A DNA stretch of 64,000 nt, from positions 154-64,153 of the IMG/VR virus record IMGVR_UViG_3300035454_000933; one strand, 5' to 3'. The stretch comes from a virus. Lineage: Duplodnaviria > Caudoviricetes. Made by a program: the position numbers and the translations under genes. Shown piece after piece: positions 2,760-40,357 of the stretch (position 1 is the first letter of the stretch; each line of letters opens with the position of its first letter). The notes under the pieces are model-generated. The model saw nothing but the letters and a program-made list of their open reading frames with translations. It had not been told where the DNA came from and made no database searches.

Positions 2760-4706
2760 TTAAACCGTTGCGGTGACAGGGATTCCGTCGAAAGTGACGC
2801 TCTGCAGTACCTCGCCGGCGCCGAAGCCATTGATCTGGAAAGAGAGCTGGATCTGGCGCAGGAACTCGGCCGGTGCGTTTTGTGAGGACAGCAACACCAC
2901 GGTGTTCGATGTGTCGGTCCAAAACCGGTTGGCGCCGTGCCAGCCAGGGGCGAAGCCGACGATGCGCTGCGTGATGGCAGAAGCCCAAGTCGTCTGGATG
3001 TCGGTCCAGCGATCGATGGCCGGTGTGAGCCGCACGGCGGCCGGCAACGGGTCGAACGCCATGTAAGGGTTGACCTTCATGAAGCCGGTCTGCGAGATCT
3101 GCTGCAGGACCACGCCCAGGGTATGCGCCATGCCGGTCTCGACGGTCACGTCGGCCGATGGGATCTCGACTTTAGAGACGGTCACGGACAGCGTGAGTTC
3201 ACCTTCGAAGATGGCGGCATCGTTGACGACTCCGGCATCGCGCAGCGTGTCATCGAGGAACGGGTCAACGAAAAGGCCCTTTTTCTGGATGGCCTCTTTC
3301 AGGTTCGCCGAGCTCTCCAGTCGCTGCTGCGAGATCAGGCCCAGCATGTAGTCGATGCGGCCGTTGAGCTGAGCCAGGTCCTGCATGGGCACCACGCGAA
3401 CACCGTCGTTGGACAGCGTGCGCGTGACGCGCCAGTTCTGCTGCACGGTGGCCAGAACCAGAAGGTCGCGCGGCACCGTTGGGACGATCGGGTTCCAGTC
3501 GGCGCTCACACCCTTGATCCAGGTGAACATGCCGTCTGGCGTCATCACCAGGCGGTCGAAGCGCGGCAGCTTCTGGCGGTAGGTCACCAGCACCAGGGAG
3601 TCCACCACGGCGCCGGTGACGGTGAATCCGTCGTCGTCAACAGCGGTTGGGGTGATGGTCTGGATGTGGCGGTAGGTCGCGGTGTAGGTCGAGCCCGTGG
3701 CCGGCTCCGGGCCCGCCAGGCTCCAGTCCACCTGGCCGGCGGTCAACTGGTAGTCGACGCCGGCCACGTAGGTCGTGCCACCCTGGACGATGGAGACGAT
3801 CTGCAGCACCGACGTGTCGGGCAGCGGGTCCATGGCGCCAACAAATCCGCCGTGCGTGATCGTGACGGTCTTCTGCGCGGTGATCGCCACCTCGATGATG
3901 TCGTTGATCGGGCCGCGGTCGACGTTGATTCGCTGCGAGGCGACCGTGGTGCTGATGTGCGGCTCGTTGCCGATCAGCTTCGTGTCGGGCGCCGCGGCGT
4001 ACACCAGGCGGCGCGATGTGGTCTGCTCGACGCCGAAGCCGTTCACGCGAGCCCGGCCCTCGGCCACGGTGTAGACCTGCTCACCGGTCACCAGGTCGTC
4101 GGACTGCTGCACAGTGAGGCCGGACACCACGTAGGTGCCGCCCGCGCTGTCGCGGTCGTAGCGCGCCAGGGACTGGGTGAATGCGTCCAGGTTCGGCGGC
4201 ACTTCCTTGGCGGTCAGGCTGCCGTCCTCGACGGTGTAGACCGGGAAGAAGTCGCCCGACTGACCGTCGCCGGCATAGCCCCAGCTCGGCTCGATCTTCA
4301 TGCGGCCGGCACCCGGCTCCTGGTAGTTGCGCGTCAGGCTGGCTGGGTCGCGGAGCTCCGGGTCGTCGATCTCCGTCACAGCGGTGGTGGACAGGTAGAT
4401 GCCGATGGCCACGATGCCGGTGGTGGCGATCGTGAAGGTGGCCGACGGGATGCCGCGCACGGCGCCGCGCAGGTAGACGGCGCCGGACTCGCAGCGCACG
4501 ATACCGGTGTTCGCATCGACCACGGCGCGGGCGTCGCGCACGATGTCGCCATCCTTGAACAGCGCGTCACCGATGCCTTTGAGGCGCGTGCGCAGAGCGG
4601 TCTGCACCTCGTTGAGCTCGGCCGACTGCAGCACGTAGCCGGCGCGGAACAGGTGCGCCTCGTAGTTCTTGCTCTCGTCGAAACGATCGTAGTGTCCGGT
4701 GATCAT
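2760..4706 (-). CDS. DUF4815-like baseplate/tail structural protein (648 aa)
   Basis: N-terminal HYDRFDESKNYEAHLFRAGYVLQSAELNEVQ; later GLFVDPFLDD. Confidence 0.75.
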   Translation of the reverse strand: MITGHYDRFDESKNYEAHLFRAGYVLQSAELNEVQTALRTRLKGIGDALFKDGDIVRDARAVVDANTGIVRCESGAVYLRGAVRGIPSATFTIATTGIVAIGIYLSTTAVTEIDDPELRDPASLTRNYQEPGAGRMKIEPSWGYAGDGQSGDFFPVYTVEDGSLTAKEVPPNLDAFTQSLARYDRDSAGGTYVVSGLTVQQSDDLVTGEQVYTVAEGRARVNGFGVEQTTSRRLVYAAAPDTKLIGNEPHISTTVASQRINVDRGPINDIIEVAITAQKTVTITHGGFVGAMDPLPDTSVLQIVSIVQGGTTYVAGVDYQLTAGQVDWSLAGPEPATGSTYTATYRHIQTITPTAVDDDGFTVTGAVVDSLVLVTYRQKLPRFDRLVMTPDGMFTWIKGVSADWNPIVPTVPRDLLVLATVQQNWRVTRTLSNDGVRVVPMQDLAQLNGRIDYMLGLISQQRLESSANLKEAIQKKGLFVDPFLDDTLRDAGVVNDAAIFEGELTLSVTVSKVEIPSADVTVETGMAHTLGVVLQQISQTGFMKVNPYMAFDPLPAAVRLTPAIDRWTDIQTTWASAITQRIVGFAPGWHGANRFWTDTSNTVVLLSSQNAPAEFLRQIQLSFQINGFGAGEVLQSVTFDGIPVTATV

Positions 4707-6323: not shown

Positions 6324-8473
6324 CAGACAGCCCTCACTTCATCAAAAACCTGCGGGGCCGCCCAAACGCGGTTCACGTAGGTGTGGGTTAGAATTGACGG
6401 CCAGCCCTCGCCTTGGGCGCGAACAAGGGAACCTGGAAGATTTTCAGGCCCAACTTTAAGGCTTCCGTCGGTCGTCTGCGATGCAATCCGCAGAACCTGT
6501 TGGCTGATCAGCCCGACCGGCGCAGAAGCCAATGTTCCCCGCACCTTCCAGCCCTCATAAACCACGGCGGTGATACCGATTTGCGCACCGTTGTCGAACC
6601 ACTCAAACCCATCCTCAGCTAAAGCCGTGTTCAGGTTCTGACCGACATTTAGCGTCGTGTCGCGCTCGACCGGGCCTGAGAACGTCGCCACGAACTGAGT
6701 GCCGCTCAGTGTCACGTCTGTAATATGCAGAGCGCCCCATCGCTTGCCATCCTCGGCATAGGACCGAAGTGCACGTCCAACCGCCTCGCCGCGCTGAATG
6801 TAGCCCTCCTGTGTCGGGTGCACTCGATCAGATCCAGTCGGCCATTGGTAGATGCCGCCAAAATCAATCCCGCCAGGCAAATCGCGGGCAAGACGTCTGA
6901 TTGCTTCTCTGATTTCAGCGTAGGTCAGGCCCGCTATCGTGCCGGGTGCGGGAGATGTGAACACGATGGGGGCAACATAGCCTGGCTTGCGCATCGCTTG
7001 GGCCGCATAAAGCTGAGCTCGACCGTAATATTCGACACCCAGATCATAGTAATCCTGCTCTGTCGTGCCCTCTGAAGCGTTTGCTTCTCCGTGCGCGGTG
7101 TAGAACATCACCTCTGGGTCGAACCCATCCGCCAACGCCAACGCGCAAAGACGTTGCAGAATCGCCCACAGATTCGTCGCCGGCCCGCCAGTCATAAGCA
7201 CTTGCAAGGACCGTGCGCCGATGGCAACGCTACCAATATAGACACTGGCGAACTTGCCACCGATGATGGTGTTGACCACGCCGACCATGGGCGTCTGAGC
7301 CGTGCGTTCCTCGAAGTCGACAACAGACGCCAACTCCGACCAGTGCCCAACGTGGGTGGCGTTGGCCGCAAAGAACTGCCAGTTCGTGATGCTTGCCCCA
7401 CCAAACGGCATCTTGGCTACAGGGGCACCCCTTGTTGCGACAATCGCATTGCGCGGCGCATTGAGCGATTGCCCGAGCAGCACCACGACGGCCGCTTTGG
7501 GGCGTGTCGAGCCAGCCGTGCGGAGCCTGTCCAGATACCGCTGGCGCCTTGTCCCGAACTCAATAGCCTCTTGCACCGGAGCCGAAGCGGGGTACCGTGC
7601 AAGCTCCGTCGCTGTCGTGCTGTTGGTCCTGGCGTACCGGATGATTTCGTTTGCCCCAACAACCTGAAATTGCTGACCGTCTGCGGTGACGGCAAGACCT
7701 GCCGCTGTGGTTGTGTACACCAGAGCGTTGACCGTGGCCGCATCACGGGCAGCCTGCGCCACCGCCGAAGCCGTCTCGGCCGCCGTGCGCGCCACAACAG
7801 CGGCTGCGCGCTCAGCGGTAGAGGTGCCGGCAGCCTCGACCGCGGTAACCGCCTGCGCGGAAGCCTGCGCGGCAGCAGACAGCGTGGCGTCGAGCGCCTC
7901 CTGCACGGGCGCCAGCGACGTGGCGCCGGCATCCTCGATCTCGGCCACCTTGGTGGCGGCCAGGCTTGATATTGCTGCCGCGGCGGTGGACGATGTGGCC
8001 ACGAAGCTGTCGCGAGCCACAACAGCAGCCGAAGCCGCGTTCACCGCCGTCGTGGCCGCAGTGGTGGCGTCTGACGCCTTCTGCTGAGTGGTGGTCTGCG
8101 CCTGGTAGGCGTAGGTCGCGGCATTGCTGGCCTGCAGCTGGGCCGCATCAGCGCCGGTGCGCGCCTGCTCGGCCAGCGCCTGGGCTGCCAGCGCGGCGTT
8201 CTTGTGCGCCAGCGCGGCGGCAGCGTTGACGGATGATGAGCCGGCAGCGGCCTCGGCGACAGCGATCTGCCCCAGGGCCTGGTCGGCTTTTCCGTCAGCA
8301 CCAAGCGCCACGCCAGCGGCGGCCTCGGTTGCAGCCTTCAGGAACGCCGTGCGATCGGCAAGCTGCTTGGCCTGGACGTTGATGACGCCGTCGGGGCCGC
8401 CAAGGACGGCGTCATCGGTTTCAATCTGGTCAACGGTTGGCGTCCAGACGGCGGACTCTGGCAGGTTGGACAT
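6323..8473 (-). CDS. Tailspike/fibre with C-terminal SGNH-type (sialate O-acetylesterase-like) domain (716 aa from ATG 8473)
   Basis: Anchor N-terminus shared with the 556-aa spike; Ala-rich coiled stalk; SGNH blocks LLGQSLN, AHGEAN, DRVHP. Confidence 0.75.
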   Translation of the reverse strand: MSNLPESAVWTPTVDQIETDDAVLGGPDGVINVQAKQLADRTAFLKAATEAAAGVALGADGKADQALGQIAVAEAAAGSSSVNAAAALAHKNAALAAQALAEQARTGADAAQLQASNAATYAYQAQTTTQQKASDATTAATTAVNAASAAVVARDSFVATSSTAAAAISSLAATKVAEIEDAGATSLAPVQEALDATLSAAAQASAQAVTAVEAAGTSTAERAAAVVARTAAETASAVAQAARDAATVNALVYTTTAAGLAVTADGQQFQVVGANEIIRYARTNSTTATELARYPASAPVQEAIEFGTRRQRYLDRLRTAGSTRPKAAVVVLLGQSLNAPRNAIVATRGAPVAKMPFGGASITNWQFFAANATHVGHWSELASVVDFEERTAQTPMVGVVNTIIGGKFASVYIGSVAIGARSLQVLMTGGPATNLWAILQRLCALALADGFDPEVMFYTAHGEANASEGTTEQDYYDLGVEYYGRAQLYAAQAMRKPGYVAPIVFTSPAPGTIAGLTYAEIREAIRRLARDLPGGIDFGGIYQWPTGSDRVHPTQEGYIQRGEAVGRALRSYAEDGKRWGALHITDVTLSGTQFVATFSGPVERDTTLNVGQNLNTALAEDGFEWFDNGAQIGITAVVYEGWKVRGTLASAPVGLISQQVLRIASQTTDGSLKVGPENLPGSLVRAQGEGWPSILTHTYVNRVWAAPQVFDEVRAV

Positions 8474-35931: not shown

Positions 35932-35953
35932 CCCAGCAGGATAAGGTCACGAC
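35932..35953 (-). promoter_or_regulatory. Late promoter GTCGTGA-CCT-TATCCT-N6-ATG
   Basis: Exact spacing; motif overlaps the MuF stop. Confidence 0.75.
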
Positions 35954-37101
35954 GCGCCCAGGATGGCCGCCAGCTCGGCCGCAAACTCAGGGTCATCACC
36001 AGGGTCAACGTCGCCACCAGCCAGCACCCAGCGGCCGCGGCAATGCGGGTGCACCAGGCCCGCGGGGATCCACCACATCTCGGCCGGGTCGCGCTCCACC
36101 AGCACATCCCCGACGCGCTTACGCGGGGACGCTGCGCGCCCGATGTTGTTCTTTCCGGGCCAGACCATGCGGTCCGGATCCTTCTTGGGGTGATCCGGCG
36201 AGACGACCTCGACCACCGCGCCGTCGATGCGCCGGCAGAACGCGCAGGCGCCGTCGTAGCGCTCCACGCGCTTGATCCGGGTCCCGGGCTTCAAGCTGGC
36301 GATGTAGCCCTGCAGCTGGGCTTCTCCGGCCTCCGTGACCGCGATCCGGCGCCAGTCCCGGTTCATGGCGCCGAACTCGTCGAGCAGCTTTGTCTCCAGG
36401 CTGTGGGACCCGGCGAGCGCCGAACCGAACGCCTGCTCTTCCAGGTGGGCGGCCACCACCACGCGCATGCGGTGGCGCGCGCTTTCGCTCAGCGCCCGAA
36501 CATTCTCGGCCACCCGCTGGCGCGCGAACGTGAGCACGTTGCCGGCAAGCGCGGACAGCGGGACGCCCATGGCCGACGACGACGGCAGAGAGGCCAGGAT
36601 GGCGTCGGCCTGCTTCAGCGTGGGCGGCTTTTCGAGGTTGGCCTGAACCTTGCCTAGCATGCTCGCCTTGGTGGCCAGCCAGTCGGCCTCGGCCAGCATG
36701 GCGTCGGCCGGAAGGTAGCTCTGCACCACGTACTCGATCGCGAGCATGTGGTCGTTCAGCGTCCACTGGGCCGGCGGCAGACTTTCGAGGTACAGGCGCG
36801 CCAGGGCGAGCTCCCCCTGCGACCAGTGCGACATGATCCCCGGTGGTGGCGCGGGCGCTGCAGCGGCGGTGTGATTGGCTCCCGACTTCCAGGCCAGGAA
36901 CTGCGTGCGGACGGCATCCAGGCGCATCAGGCCGCGCTCTGTGAATAGCTCGATCAGGCGGTGCACCAGGGGCGAGTCGTGCGGCTTCCAGATACCGTCC
37001 TTGCCGTGGTCGTGGCCATCCGAGAGGGCCTTGTACAAGCCCTCAAGGGTGTCGTTGGTGACGGACTCGGGAACGTTGATCAGGTCGAGGAATAAGCCCA
37101 T
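35947..37101 (-). CDS. MuF/SPP1 gp7-like head morphogenesis protein (384 aa)
   Basis: RDWRRIAVTEAGEA, DGACAFC, LVHPHCRGRW. Confidence 0.85.
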   Translation of the reverse strand: MGLFLDLINVPESVTNDTLEGLYKALSDGHDHGKDGIWKPHDSPLVHRLIELFTERGLMRLDAVRTQFLAWKSGANHTAAAAPAPPPGIMSHWSQGELALARLYLESLPPAQWTLNDHMLAIEYVVQSYLPADAMLAEADWLATKASMLGKVQANLEKPPTLKQADAILASLPSSSAMGVPLSALAGNVLTFARQRVAENVRALSESARHRMRVVVAAHLEEQAFGSALAGSHSLETKLLDEFGAMNRDWRRIAVTEAGEAQLQGYIASLKPGTRIKRVERYDGACAFCRRIDGAVVEVVSPDHPKKDPDRMVWPGKNNIGRAASPRKRVGDVLVERDPAEMWWIPAGLVHPHCRGRWVLAGGDVDPGDDPEFAAELAAILGAS

Positions 37102-37123
37102 GGCGGAAGTATGGGGTCACGAC
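37102..37123 (-). promoter_or_regulatory. Late promoter GTCGTGA-CCC-CATACT-N6-ATG
   Basis: Exact spacing. Confidence 0.75.
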
Positions 37124-37126
37124 AGC

Positions 37127-37201
37127 TGGAGCGGGCCGCGGGAATCGAACCCGCCTGGTCAGCTTGGAAGGCTGATGCCTGAACCGATCGGCCAGGCCCG
37201 C
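37127..37201 (-). tRNA. tRNA-Gly (anticodon TCC)
   Basis: Acceptor GCGGGCC/GGCCCGC, anticodon arm TCAGC-CTTCCAA-GCTGA, T arm GCGGG-TTCGATT-CCCGC, encoded CCA; 75 nt. Confidence 0.9.
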
Positions 37202-37912
37202 ATACAACGAAGCCCACCGAAGTGGGCCTCGCGGCTGGTTGCTGCCCAGCGCATCAGCTGCAGGACGACATTTCTGGGCCTGCGCACTTTTGCAGCTACC
37301 CCTTGCGGGGCGCATCACTCTACAGAGGTGAGTTGATGGTGCTGAGGACGATTCAGCGGCATCCAGCGCGCCCGGCGGTACTTTACATGCCACAAGGACG
37401 CCAGCTCGCGCGGCGCGCTGGTTCGGATAGCCTCGCGCCACCTACTGAGCGCACCCGAAGCAGGCCGATCCGGCAGCCCGCAACATCCTCGCTTCTCGGT
37501 TCGCGACCATCGTGGCGGCGCCCTATTGCGGATCCAGGATAGACAAGTCCCTTCTCGCTACTGCAGCAGGAGCGCCATCACGATGGCCCTACGCCCGTTT
37601 TGGTGGGCGGACGCAGGTCACCGTGTCGGGGTACGTCTCCCGCCCGGGCTTTCACCGTTCGTGTAGCTGCTCGTCCGTTGATGGACCACACACCCCAGAA
37701 GCTTGGGCCTTACCGCCGTGCTCGCCGCCCTACCAGCTCCGGCCCTTTCGGGTATCGCGGCTTGAGGACTGGGTCCGCACTCCTGCCCCACAAGGGGAGA
37801 CGTCACGCATGCCACAGCACACAGCAGTCTCGCGCTTCGGTGAGCCAACGGGCGAGGCCCCGAAAGGCCTCGCCGAATTGACACACAACCCGCGCTTCTC
37901 GGGGGGTTGTAT
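37202..37912 (-). ncRNA. Candidate large structured RNA between two tRNAs (GOLLD/ROOL-like context)
   Basis: About 710 nt with no credible CDS; cUUCGg, GCAA and GAAA tetraloop hairpins on the minus strand; nested long-range helices 37272-78/37694-700 and 37292-99/37663-70; 10-bp stem 37363-72/37412-21. Confidence 0.55.
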
Positions 37913-37989
37913 TGGTTGCGAGGGCCCGATTTGAACGGGCGACATTCTGGGTATGAACCAGACGCTCTACCAGGCTGAGCTACCACGCG
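37913..37989 (-). tRNA. tRNA-Met (CAT), initiator-like
   Basis: 77 nt, C1:A72 mismatch, anticodon arm TCTGG-TTCATAC-CCAGA, T arm, encoded CCA. Confidence 0.85.
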
Positions 37990-38245
37990 CCAATGGGAAC
38001 AGCCGGAAGCTGCTCTCATTGGCGGCCTGCAAGCAGGACCAATGCCCGGGTACGCTATCCGGGTCCGACGCATGGGCATGAAGCCCGATGGTGGACGGCA
38101 CACCACACCACATGGAGTGGATGCGATGTTAGCACCATCCCGACAATGGCCGCCTGGTGTTGCCACCATCCAACGGGCACTGGTGCCTGCGGTAGCGACG
38201 GCACCCATCGGGATGCATTGCTGCAAACCGACCCCGGGTCGCGCC
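37990..38245 (-). ncRNA. Second hairpin-rich block with no credible CDS, upstream of tRNA-Met
   Basis: Stems GCCAATG/CATTGGC (37989-38023), CCTG-CTTG-CAGG, CCCGATGG/CCATCGGG (38084-91/38205-12), GGTGCC/GGCACC. Confidence 0.45.
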
Positions 38246-38250
38246 GGAGG

Positions 38251-38272
38251 AAAAAATCCCGGCTTGCGCCGG
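38251..38272 (-). terminator. Possible terminator after the portal operon
   Basis: CCGGC-GCAA-GCCGG then GATTTTTT. Confidence 0.5.
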
Positions 38273-38284
38273 CCCTGCTGGGCT

Positions 38285-38629
38285 TCAGGGTGTTTTTTTG
38301 AGTCTAAGCTGTTCCTGCCGTGCTTCCGGCGGAATCCCAACAAAACGACGCCGGCCGGACGCATCCTGAACAATCAGACCGTCCTCGCCTTCCTCAATCA
38401 CGTGGTAGCGCTGCTCGGCGCGCTTCTTGTGCCCAGACAGGTGCTCCCAGCGGATCCGGTGCTGGGCGCCTTCGTGCTCCACCGTGCAGCCATGCTTGCC
38501 GGTGCAGACGACCTTGCCGGACACAGGCTGGCCCGATCGGTGGAAGAACACCTCATCACCCGCACTGGCGCGGTAGGCCCCAGCGGCGGCCTGCTGGCGC
38601 GCGTTCTTGGGAGCGTTGAAGTCGGCCAT
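38285..38629 (-). CDS. Hypothetical small beta-barrel-like protein coupled to portal (114 aa)
   Basis: Start overlaps the portal stop; AGDEVFF...GKVVCTGKHGCTV. Confidence 0.7.
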   Translation of the reverse strand: MADFNAPKNARQQAAAGAYRASAGDEVFFHRSGQPVSGKVVCTGKHGCTVEHEGAQHRIRWEHLSGHKKRAEQRYHVIEEGEDGLIVQDASGRRRFVGIPPEARQEQLRLKKTP

Positions 38630-40335
38630 TACGGCTCCACCGTGAACACCGGCAGGCCGAAGGACTTCTTCAGGCTGCCATCGTCGAACATCCCTTGTTC
38701 CTCTTGCCCAGCGTCGCCGCCAGGCGGGGCGCCAGTGGCGTCCTCGTCGTCGCCACCCACGCCAGGCGGAGGCTGTCCGCCGCCGGCCGTCGGGTCGCCG
38801 TAGTCCTCCTGCGAGGCCTGCTTGGACGCCTGGTACGCGCCAGAGAGCACAGGGTTCAGCGGCGCATCGCCGATATCGCCCTCAACCGCATCCAGGTTCA
38901 GGTGGGTCTTGCGGGCCTCGTTCCAGGTCATCAGGGTCTTGGCCTTGTCCCAGGTCGTCTCCGGCGATTCCTCGTCGAGCCCGGTCCAGCGGAAGCAGTA
39001 CTTGTCGCCGAACTCCGACACCACGTAATCCGAGAACACGTCCTCGAAGTGGGTCAGCAGCGGGCGCAGGCCTTTGTCCTTCGAGTTGACCAGCTTCTCT
39101 TCGGTGTCCGAGCCAGACAGAGACGACGTGCCCGCGGTGAAGGACTCGAAGTTGATCTCGTCCGGCGCGATGCCGTAGATCGCGCAGATGATCGACGTCA
39201 GGAACGTCATCCATTTGGCGAACATGATCTCGTTCACCTCGACGCCGAAGTTCTCGAAGGCGGCCTTGGACTCCTGATTTTTCGACACGAGCACCGGCAA
39301 CGTCCACGCGTTGTTGATGCCCTTGACCATGGCATTCCAATAGCGCTTGAAGGCGGCCATGTCCTGCTCGGCGTAGTCGCCGGTCAGGTGCAGCAAGCCC
39401 TTGGGGATGCTGTTCGAGTCGAAATAGCGCGTGTTGTAGGTGAAGGCGTTCAGGAAGCCGGTGACGACGCGCACCAGCAGCTCGACCTCGGACAGGCCGT
39501 AGCCGCCCACCATCACGTCGGTGCGCGGATTGCGCGGCACGTAGATCAGGTCGTCGAAGGTGTAGGCGGCCCGGATGTTCCCGTCGACCACCTGCAGGGC
39601 GAATATCTCGTCGTCGCCCTGGTAGCCGATCTCGTTGGCCAGCCGGATGGTCGCACCGTCCACGGCGTACATGCCGTCGATGCCCATCGCCTTGTTGCGC
39701 TTGTACTCCGTCTCGATCGGCGCGCTGTCCATGGTGAGGCTGTCGCGCACCAGCTTCGCCATGAGGCCGGAGAAGTTGTCGCGCTTGAGGCGCGCGCGCT
39801 GCCGCGGGTTCTTTTCCCAGCCGCAGTGCGTGAAGAAGTCCTGCAGGAGCGCCACCGACTGGTGCTCATCTGTCCCCAATTTTTCGTTCGGGTCCTTCAG
39901 GGCGATCTTGAAGCCCGGGCCCTTGCCGCCGTCGGCCACGCGACAAAAGCGCTTGACCTGGCGGATCCGCGTGAAGACCACCGCAGACAGGATGGGGGTC
40001 TGATCGACCATGCCGCGCAGCATGTCGAAGGACATGGAGCTCCAGCGGTCGCGCCACTCCCCCATGGCGTTGCCATACGTGTCGTTGATGTGGACCGACT
40101 GCATGCCGGCCTTGCCGCGCTCGACCGCCCGGGACGGGAACGGGATCACGTTCGCGCGCGACAACGACTTCGCAAAATCCTGCTCAGCGTAGCTCTCGCG
40201 CATGTACTCGATGATGGGCGCCATGTCCTGCACCGAGGACGGCATGGCGTCCTGCTGCGCCTCTCGGAGCGCATCGACGCGCTCGTCTTGGGGGGCGCCA
40301 TCAGCGTGGGCAACAGAAAGTGCAGTTTCAGCCAT
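38629..40335 (-). CDS. Portal protein (568 aa)
   Basis: YIPRNPR-like YVPRNPRTDV, GYGLSEVE, IPKGLLHL, FGVxP-like YGIAPDEINF, KDKGLRPLL. Confidence 0.9.
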   Translation of the reverse strand: MAETALSVAHADGAPQDERVDALREAQQDAMPSSVQDMAPIIEYMRESYAEQDFAKSLSRANVIPFPSRAVERGKAGMQSVHINDTYGNAMGEWRDRWSSMSFDMLRGMVDQTPILSAVVFTRIRQVKRFCRVADGGKGPGFKIALKDPNEKLGTDEHQSVALLQDFFTHCGWEKNPRQRARLKRDNFSGLMAKLVRDSLTMDSAPIETEYKRNKAMGIDGMYAVDGATIRLANEIGYQGDDEIFALQVVDGNIRAAYTFDDLIYVPRNPRTDVMVGGYGLSEVELLVRVVTGFLNAFTYNTRYFDSNSIPKGLLHLTGDYAEQDMAAFKRYWNAMVKGINNAWTLPVLVSKNQESKAAFENFGVEVNEIMFAKWMTFLTSIICAIYGIAPDEINFESFTAGTSSLSGSDTEEKLVNSKDKGLRPLLTHFEDVFSDYVVSEFGDKYCFRWTGLDEESPETTWDKAKTLMTWNEARKTHLNLDAVEGDIGDAPLNPVLSGAYQASKQASQEDYGDPTAGGGQPPPGVGGDDEDATGAPPGGDAGQEEQGMFDDGSLKKSFGLPVFTVEP

Positions 40336-40357
40336 TTACCCAGTGTGCCGTCACGAC
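40336..40357 (-). promoter_or_regulatory. Late promoter GTCGTGA-CGG-CACACT-N6-ATG (portal)
   Basis: Exact spacing; shares CGTGACGGCACACTG with the 23889 site. Confidence 0.75.

Follow-up and report, generated by a model that had tools for sequence, protein, structure and literature searches.

What does a 711-nt gap between two tRNA genes in the head-gene region of a phage genome encode? The gap lies within the window, the whole stretch of 64,000 nucleotides that was analysed, which comes from a 64-kb IMG/VR record that is about 70% complete and is kin to Bordetella phage PHB04, a 94-kb Phabquatrovirus. The initial annotation had read the gap as one highly structured RNA of about 710 nt, either a relative of the GOLLD and ROOL RNAs or a new class. 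Extra stable RNAs in phage tRNA clusters have long been known, and their purpose is still a puzzle.

The gap between the tRNA genes is non-coding

The locus comprises the following features, given in the order in which the RNA strand is read:

38629–40335, minus strand: portal gene (Pfam Phage_portal, PF04860)
38285–38629, minus strand: small conserved ORF
38259–38272, minus strand: terminator-like hairpin with a T-run, just past the small ORF
37990–38258, minus strand: upstream structured non-coding block before tRNA-Met (flat GC-frame plot, local z −2.6 to −2.9, BLAST)
37913–37989, minus strand: tRNA-Met (CAU) (ARAGORN; Rfam, 57.8 bits)
37202–37912, minus strand: flagged non-coding spacer of 711 nt, mosaic and largely lineage-specific (folding, GC-frame plot, BLAST)
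37127–37201, minus strand: tRNA-Gly (UCC) (ARAGORN, Rfam)
37108–37123, minus strand: copy of a promoter-like motif before the 384-aa gene (exact match)
35947–37101, minus strand: 384-aa gene, labelled MuF in the initial annotation

ARAGORN and Rfam both find the two flanking tRNA genes on the minus strand, as first reported, and on the RNA strand tRNA-Met lies 5′ and tRNA-Gly 3′ of the gap. tRNA-Met has non-standard pairs at acceptor positions 1 and 5 (Rfam), the first acceptor pair being a mismatch with C opposite A. Its acceptor ends resemble those of bacterial initiator tRNA, and its anticodon stem is without the full run of three G-C pairs; this phage tRNA may be an initiator-type variant. 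The locus had been placed between the genes for portal and MuF. The portal assignment is upheld by PF04860, but the MuF label is not, as the product of the 384-aa gene has no match in Pfam or PHROGs. That gene is kept in most relatives, at 49–70% identity.

The GC contents of the three codon positions form flat curves (0.6–0.7) from about 37125 to 38250 and split to 0.9 and 0.45 in the flanking genes, and the ORFs that cross the gap matched no PHROG family. Because of these two results we conclude that 37202–37912 is non-coding, which rules out a hidden coding gene and agrees with the earlier remark that the gap holds no credible coding sequence. The extent first given is right for the 711 nt but too short for the non-coding stretch, which also takes in 37990–38284 upstream of tRNA-Met. 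Conservation of the block at 37990–38258 reaches only the closest relative, L002 (BLAST). On the minus strand this block contains the word GAUGGUG three times; the same word terminates module Y (see below) and other hairpin modules in relatives.

Searches for known RNA families

Over the window, Rfam 15 at gathering score returned the two tRNAs only. A cmscan of 36800–38400 with matches admitted at E values up to 10 gave neither GOLLD (RF01998) nor ROOL (RF03087), which leaves the proposed kinship with these RNAs without support. The same range and threshold gave no tmRNA, STnc100, group I or group II intron, RNase P, riboswitch or ribozyme. The literature, searched by motif strings, yielded nothing relevant.

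Two candidates deserve separate mention. A permuted tmRNA (RF04321, RF01850) was rejected because ARAGORN and Rfam (E up to 10) find none in the window; the tRNA-like domain and the tag reading frame of such an RNA are both missing there, and the same tools detect the tmRNAs of PHB04 and contig L028. STnc100 (RF02076) was rejected for want of a covariance-model match at E up to 10.

The permuted tmRNA genes of the relatives are in two pieces and lie at 4356–4693 on the minus strand of PHB04 (L001) and at 6676–7096 on the plus strand of L028; their tags are ANDDYIRAAA and ANDSSFLMAANA. The annotation of the PHB04 record shows only a 37-aa hypothetical protein in its 2.7-kb RNA region.

Folding of the 711 nt as a whole

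The region as a whole (minimum free energy −340 kcal/mol) folds modestly better than shuffled sequences, the yardstick named in the initial annotation, with z between −2.3 (minus strand, 60 shuffles) and −3.65 (20 shuffles), but z for ten coding controls of 711 nt, also taken from the window, lies between +0.7 and −2.0. The plus strand has z −1.4 with 60 shuffles, and its fold is 31 kcal/mol less favourable than that of the minus strand. Significant local structure is confined to module Y (z −3.8) and the 3′-terminal 99 nt (37202–37300; z −3.96). The description 'highly structured' suits these two segments but not the entire region, whose z overlaps that of the coding controls.

All of the minus-strand hairpins that had been named were found at their positions. 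The enclosing and nested long-range helices that had been proposed are likewise present as complementary words, but only at chance frequency and without conservation. Exactly complementary 7-mers separated by 100 nt or more number 30, compared with 19.7 ± 5.6 in dinucleotide shuffles (12 of 200 shuffles reach 30), and long-range complementary 8-mers number 10, compared with 5.2 ± 3.2 (18 of 200 reach 10). Because these words are not significantly above shuffles, the nested long-range pairs are what a sequence of 65% GC yields anyway.

These measurements bear on the reading that the locus makes one structured RNA of about 0.7 kb, a new class that is excised whole and in which the conserved segments X and Y described below are cores of a fast-diverging, ornate scaffold. 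Such an RNA would suit the tRNA genes on both sides, the 7 bp by which its two outermost ends can pair, the whole-region z-score, the energy difference between the strands and the slight, non-significant excess of long-range complementary words; the overlap of the z-score with coding controls and the chance level of the long-range helices argue the other way.

The gap is a hypervariable hotspot for RNA cassettes

We gathered 38 IMG/VR relatives via the portal protein. Across these relatives the portal gene and the homologue of the 384-aa gene lie between about 240 nt and about 5 kb apart, and the gap contains no tRNA or one to three tRNAs. Further cassettes found there include a permuted tmRNA (L028), an anti-hemB-like sRNA (L028, L004) and the V-W units described below (L019/L033, L005). 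The gap between the portal gene and the next gene is thus a hypervariable insertion hotspot for RNA cassettes. One relative, L016, has a spacer of like size (698 nt). The anti-hemB matches (RF02837, a Burkholderia sRNA) score above gathering, at 7211–7299 of L028 and 3460–3528 of L004, and sit just upstream of the homologue of the 384-aa gene, where the window has tRNA-Gly.

The comparison was widened to 365 loci from relatives and other phages, about 3 Mb in all. When the window's 1.2 kb of non-coding sequence was searched against these loci with BLAST, only the tRNAs and two short pieces, here called modules X and Y, recurred. Homologues among the 365 loci are lacking for about 80% of the 711 nt, and comparative support within the spacer is limited to X and Y. 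The best match in a metagenome scan for closer relatives with the 384-aa protein was 67% identical.

Module X is a conserved double hairpin

37619–37669, minus strand: module X (covariance model R1, 62.8 bits, E = 3e-14)

Module X opens with a conserved 5′ ACG, after which come two directly abutting hairpins, the first with a 4-bp stem and a 7-nt loop and the second with a 5-bp stem and an 8-nt loop. The window holds one copy, with the 5′ ACG, both hairpins and the conserved loop sequences of the R1 model. A degenerate search pattern derived from seven relatives matched 40 contigs in IMG/VR, 38 of them with the full motif. The negative control, 596 Gb of bacterial genomes, gave 120 pattern matches; 117 of these fail the hairpin test, and the three with complementary stems come from Pseudomonas, Herminiimonas and Allopusillimonas. 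Extra copies found with the R1 model lie in PHB04, L009, L242, two V-W contigs and phage P1.

Across 34 distinct sequences, aligned by fitting to the R1 model, 95% of cells are paired and five of the nine pairs change on both sides (16 cells). None of 500 shuffles reaches the observed values, and slid controls pair at 20–48%. An unfitted alignment of 26 sequences contains two covarying pairs at positions that the search pattern had left free. Thermodynamics alone gives X a z of +0.7; conservation combined with weak energetics is usual where a motif is maintained for its tertiary contacts or its contacts with protein.

Several identities for X were considered and rejected. A host housekeeping RNA does not fit its occurrence in 1 of 151 Burkholderiales genomes and its absence, for the one variant searched, from complete E. 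coli chromosome sets. The neighbouring genes are diverse, mostly early recombination genes of prophages, which excludes a constant protein partner. A promoter-to-terminator unit around X in prophages was dismissed as well: no terminator recurs consistently, and the promoter-like site that precedes X in L040 is on the opposite strand in L073.

X is co-oriented with nearby tRNAs in all cases. A tRNA lies within 600 nt in 8 of 25 contexts (a subset), compared with 7% of random places in the same loci. X immediately precedes tRNA-Pro in L073 and L076 and lies between tRNA-Met and tRNA-Tyr in L077. The copy in phage P1 (42 bits) is in the leader of the ban operon, where 4 nt separate it from the downstream tRNA-Asn, and blastn finds the X-like match of P1 also in P7, D6, RCS47 and SJ46. 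GenBank record AF234173 gives the C1-controlled ban-operon leader of P1 a dicF-like region, tRNA-Asn and tRNA-Thr; the X site is unannotated.

The tmRNA-style tag frames ANDDVVLMAA and ANDDLMMVAA occur at 978–1010 of L272 and about 2146–2178 of P1 (L366), in prophage and P1 ban-operon leaders upstream of a V-W unit or X. Neither frame is accompanied by a detectable tRNA-like domain.

Module Y is a covarying irregular hairpin

37505–37588, minus strand: module Y, an 84-nt irregular hairpin (alignment, covariation, fold z −3.8)

Module Y is built from five helical segments, with an invariant internal loop and an invariant apical loop, and is 78–86% identical to stretches in PHB04, L028, L220, L229, L230, L233 and L242. 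Eight distinct copies share 27 pairs, with 96% of cells paired and four compensatory pairs, one of which appears as three pair types; in the window's copy all but five of the 27 form, by a by-eye count on the alignment. The minimum free energy fold is the same as the covariation structure. The many G-U pairs in Y, which would be A-C mismatches on the other strand, place the Y RNA on the tRNA strand.

Y directly follows the permuted tmRNA in PHB04 and L028. ARAGORN and Rfam find no tmRNA in the five other Y-bearing contigs, so we rejected the idea that Y is part of a tmRNA. It is not a tmRNA tag region either, as its apparent reading frame is not conserved as protein and one copy has an in-frame stop. 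An assignment to the Y RNAs that accompany Ro60 was also discarded, because this phage and four other Y carriers have no TROVE-domain gene.

The 15-nt apical sequence of Y recurs by coincidence in terminase genes at a conserved EGLVYP peptide (L225–L227, L231, L234, L245 and others). Pattern matches to Y therefore need a check of the flanking stems.

X and Y travel separately

Where X and Y occur together, their order and spacing are as follows:

this window: X then Y, 36 nt apart
L028: X then Y, about 1 kb apart with the tmRNA between them
L242: X then Y, about 700 nt apart
PHB04: Y then X, about 350 nt apart

Each module is also found without the other in many contigs. In L242 both lie between two tRNAs, within a 1.5-kb ORF-poor stretch. 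Variable order and spacing, together with the solo occurrences, are what one expects of separate cassettes and not of the domains of a single RNA. Both structures are conserved and covary, both move on their own, and both share the strand of any tRNA or tmRNA gene close by; they match no Rfam 15 family and appear to be undescribed.

This pattern weighs heavily on the single-RNA reading. The arrangement in L242 and the 698-nt spacer of L016 could be taken as further examples of a large RNA framed by tRNAs, but no architecture is conserved around the modules, whose order and spacing vary and each of which stands alone in many contigs; we consider it unlikely that one RNA fills the gap. From the original proposal of a large structured RNA of a new class, a structured, non-coding, tRNA-flanked locus in the head-gene region survives. 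A single RNA of about 710 nt held by long-range helices does not, as the helices are at chance level and unconserved and the two modules are separate, in either order elsewhere.

The reading we favour, with a probability of about 0.6, is that of a phage RNA island: within the minus-strand transcript of the head genes, this untranslated stretch would hold two tRNAs with a chain of small, independently folding RNA modules strung between them.

Other structures in the spacer

Besides X and Y, the spacer contains the following candidate structures:

37588–37617, minus strand: 10-bp hairpin between X and Y with a CCA-containing loop (minimum free energy fold)
37420–37456, minus strand: possible degenerate second copy of the internal-loop and distal motifs of Y (weak, by eye only)
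37237–37300, minus strand: long V-like hairpin with an enlarged loop (fold z −3.96 for 37202–37300; V consensus)
37208–37231, minus strand: 3′-terminal GC-rich hairpin with a UUCG loop, followed by a weak U-tract and tRNA-Gly (sequence, fold)

The V-like, CCA-loop and UUCG-loop hairpins are not conserved elsewhere among the 365 loci. The hairpin at 37588–37617 has no homologue in that set and its fold is not significant alone; a vestigial tmRNA acceptor stem was considered here and rejected, as by eye there is no T-arm and the tmRNA models lend no support. Both halves of 37237–37300 match the conserved 5′ hairpin V of the V-W unit, a match that nhmmer alone does not make significant (E 4.6). 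The 3′ partner hairpin W was not found in the window, so that a complete V-W unit is lacking. The hairpin at 37208–37231 was not flagged in the terminator scan.

The V-W unit itself is a widespread tRNA-shaped RNA. Its closing stem of 7–8 bp shows free covariation from contig to contig, and its middle arm, 27–163 nt long, is swappable. Its conserved 5′ and 3′ hairpins have complementary loops, a possible kissing pair. It occurs at about 11436–11663 of L019/L033, 8803–8933 of L005 and 4458–4579 of L220, and in more than 100 other IMG/VR contigs (L246–L365). The V-W-bearing records tested had no Rfam match, and five records were without a match to RF02076.

The unmatched remainder of the spacer, about 580 nt, is by our best guess lineage-specific filler or a set of private modules. 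A starker reading is that most of the spacer is non-functional recombination debris of RNA cassettes, including a lost tmRNA, that has piled up in the hotspot, with only the tRNAs under selection. The hypervariability of the site, the 80% of orphan sequence, a V-like hairpin without its partner, the possible degenerate second Y and the adjacency of Y to a tmRNA in PHB04 and L028, when no tmRNA is found in the window, are all in keeping with this; yet debris would decay, and both X (62.8 bits) and Y are intact in the window, including pairs that differ on both sides from those of relatives. We hold this reading to be very unlikely.

Proposed transcription and processing of the island

The promoter-like motif picked out in the initial annotation is significantly enriched: it has 23 matches with at most one mismatch, compared with 11.2 ± 3.4 in shuffles. 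Fifteen exact sites are on the minus strand (for example 37108–37123, 40342–40357 and 35938–35953). The motif stands just before several gene starts, and exact copies precede the portal gene and the 384-aa gene. No copy lies inside the RNA island, which is therefore probably transcribed by read-through from the portal unit. Transcription would start at the portal promoter and continue past the terminator-like hairpin, which is presumably leaky.

Established tRNA biology makes it plausible that RNase P, acting at the 5′ end of tRNA-Gly, and 3′-end processing of tRNA-Met would free the 0.7-kb spacer. By analogy with the RNAs of the T4 tRNA cluster, the freed spacer may then be trimmed to stable hairpin modules. 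In four contexts, P1 among them, 3–11 nt separate X from a tRNA on its 3′ side, and there RNase P would create the 3′ end of X. The long, nearly continuous helix of Y could suit RNase III-type processing or serve as a stabilising stem.

The same features allow for an element that acts purely in cis. On that account the spacer, through X, Y or both, would shield the late-operon read-through transcript from Rho or RNases, or would supply RNase III or RNase E sites at which the portal message, the tRNAs and the message downstream are cut apart, and there would be no product acting in trans. The position of the island between two late genes, without a promoter-like motif of its own, agrees with this account, as do the co-orientation of X with flanking genes in the long early-operon leaders of prophages and P1 and the helix of Y, which is of the size that RNase III needs. 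However, the next gene would not need read-through, given the promoter-like motif in front of it, many relatives are without any island (a 240-nt gap), and the invariant loop sequences of X and Y point to specific recognition beyond helicity. We rate a purely cis-acting role as improbable.

Possible functions of the modules

For the favoured RNA island, the invariant loops of X and Y and their travel with tRNA and tmRNA genes indicate specific partners in tRNA processing or translation-linked machinery. Our best guess is that each module binds a protein or an RNA and acts on the processing of tRNAs or on host machinery linked to translation.

A bolder proposal is that X, Y and V-W form a portable RNA toolkit of beta- and gammaproteobacterial phages, moved together with tRNA and tmRNA genes and acting in trans as mimics or decoys of tRNAs or of ribosome-rescue RNAs. 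Cut out by tRNA-processing enzymes, the modules might blunt anticodon nucleases or divert trans-translation. If this is true, phages would have in these modules a new class of RNAs for counter-defence or takeover, but we give the proposal a low probability.

Whatever their role, two modules with covariation support are shared by unrelated phages whose hosts are Bordetella, Pseudomonas and enterobacteria. The locus also carries a caution: 'giant RNA' calls in GC-rich phage gaps deserve a test for modular make-up first.

Comparison with known systems

The locus shares with GOLLD and ROOL RNAs a phage origin, a length of several hundred nucleotides, adjacency to tRNAs and an enigmatic function. 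It differs from them in giving no match to their models and in conserving only two short, independently moving modules without a large architecture. Permuted tmRNAs are found in relatives in comparable islands, with Y immediately behind the tmRNA in PHB04 and L028, whereas the window has no tRNA-like domain or tag frame and Y is also present where there is no tmRNA.

The tRNA cluster of phage T4 gives two stable RNAs, species 1 and 2, of unknown function. Like these, the modules described here would be structured non-tRNA RNAs inside a phage tRNA transcription unit, from which tRNA-processing enzymes are expected to release them, and the 711-nt spacer does sit between two co-oriented tRNAs. 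The difference is that processing of the spacer is here deduced from this arrangement; no sequence relation to the T4 RNAs is expected.

The put antitermination RNAs of phage HK022 are about 70 nt long, with long bulged stems in two stem-loops at most one base apart, and are cis-encoded in phage operon leaders, where they act just after the promoter by binding the zinc-binding domain of RNA polymerase (PMC9378689). X likewise consists of two near-abutting stem-loops found in phage operon leaders. Size and position differ: the stems of X have 4 and 5 bp in a total of about 40 nt, and X often abuts tRNAs and is distant from promoters.

The ban leader of P1 offers a parallel for X, which lies there in an untranslated stretch with other RNA modules, before a tRNA. 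P1 has no Y, and its leader belongs to an early operon of a temperate phage, in contrast to the head-gene region here. Since X precedes a tRNA in this well-mapped operon, the function of the module is open to ordinary genetics in a model system.
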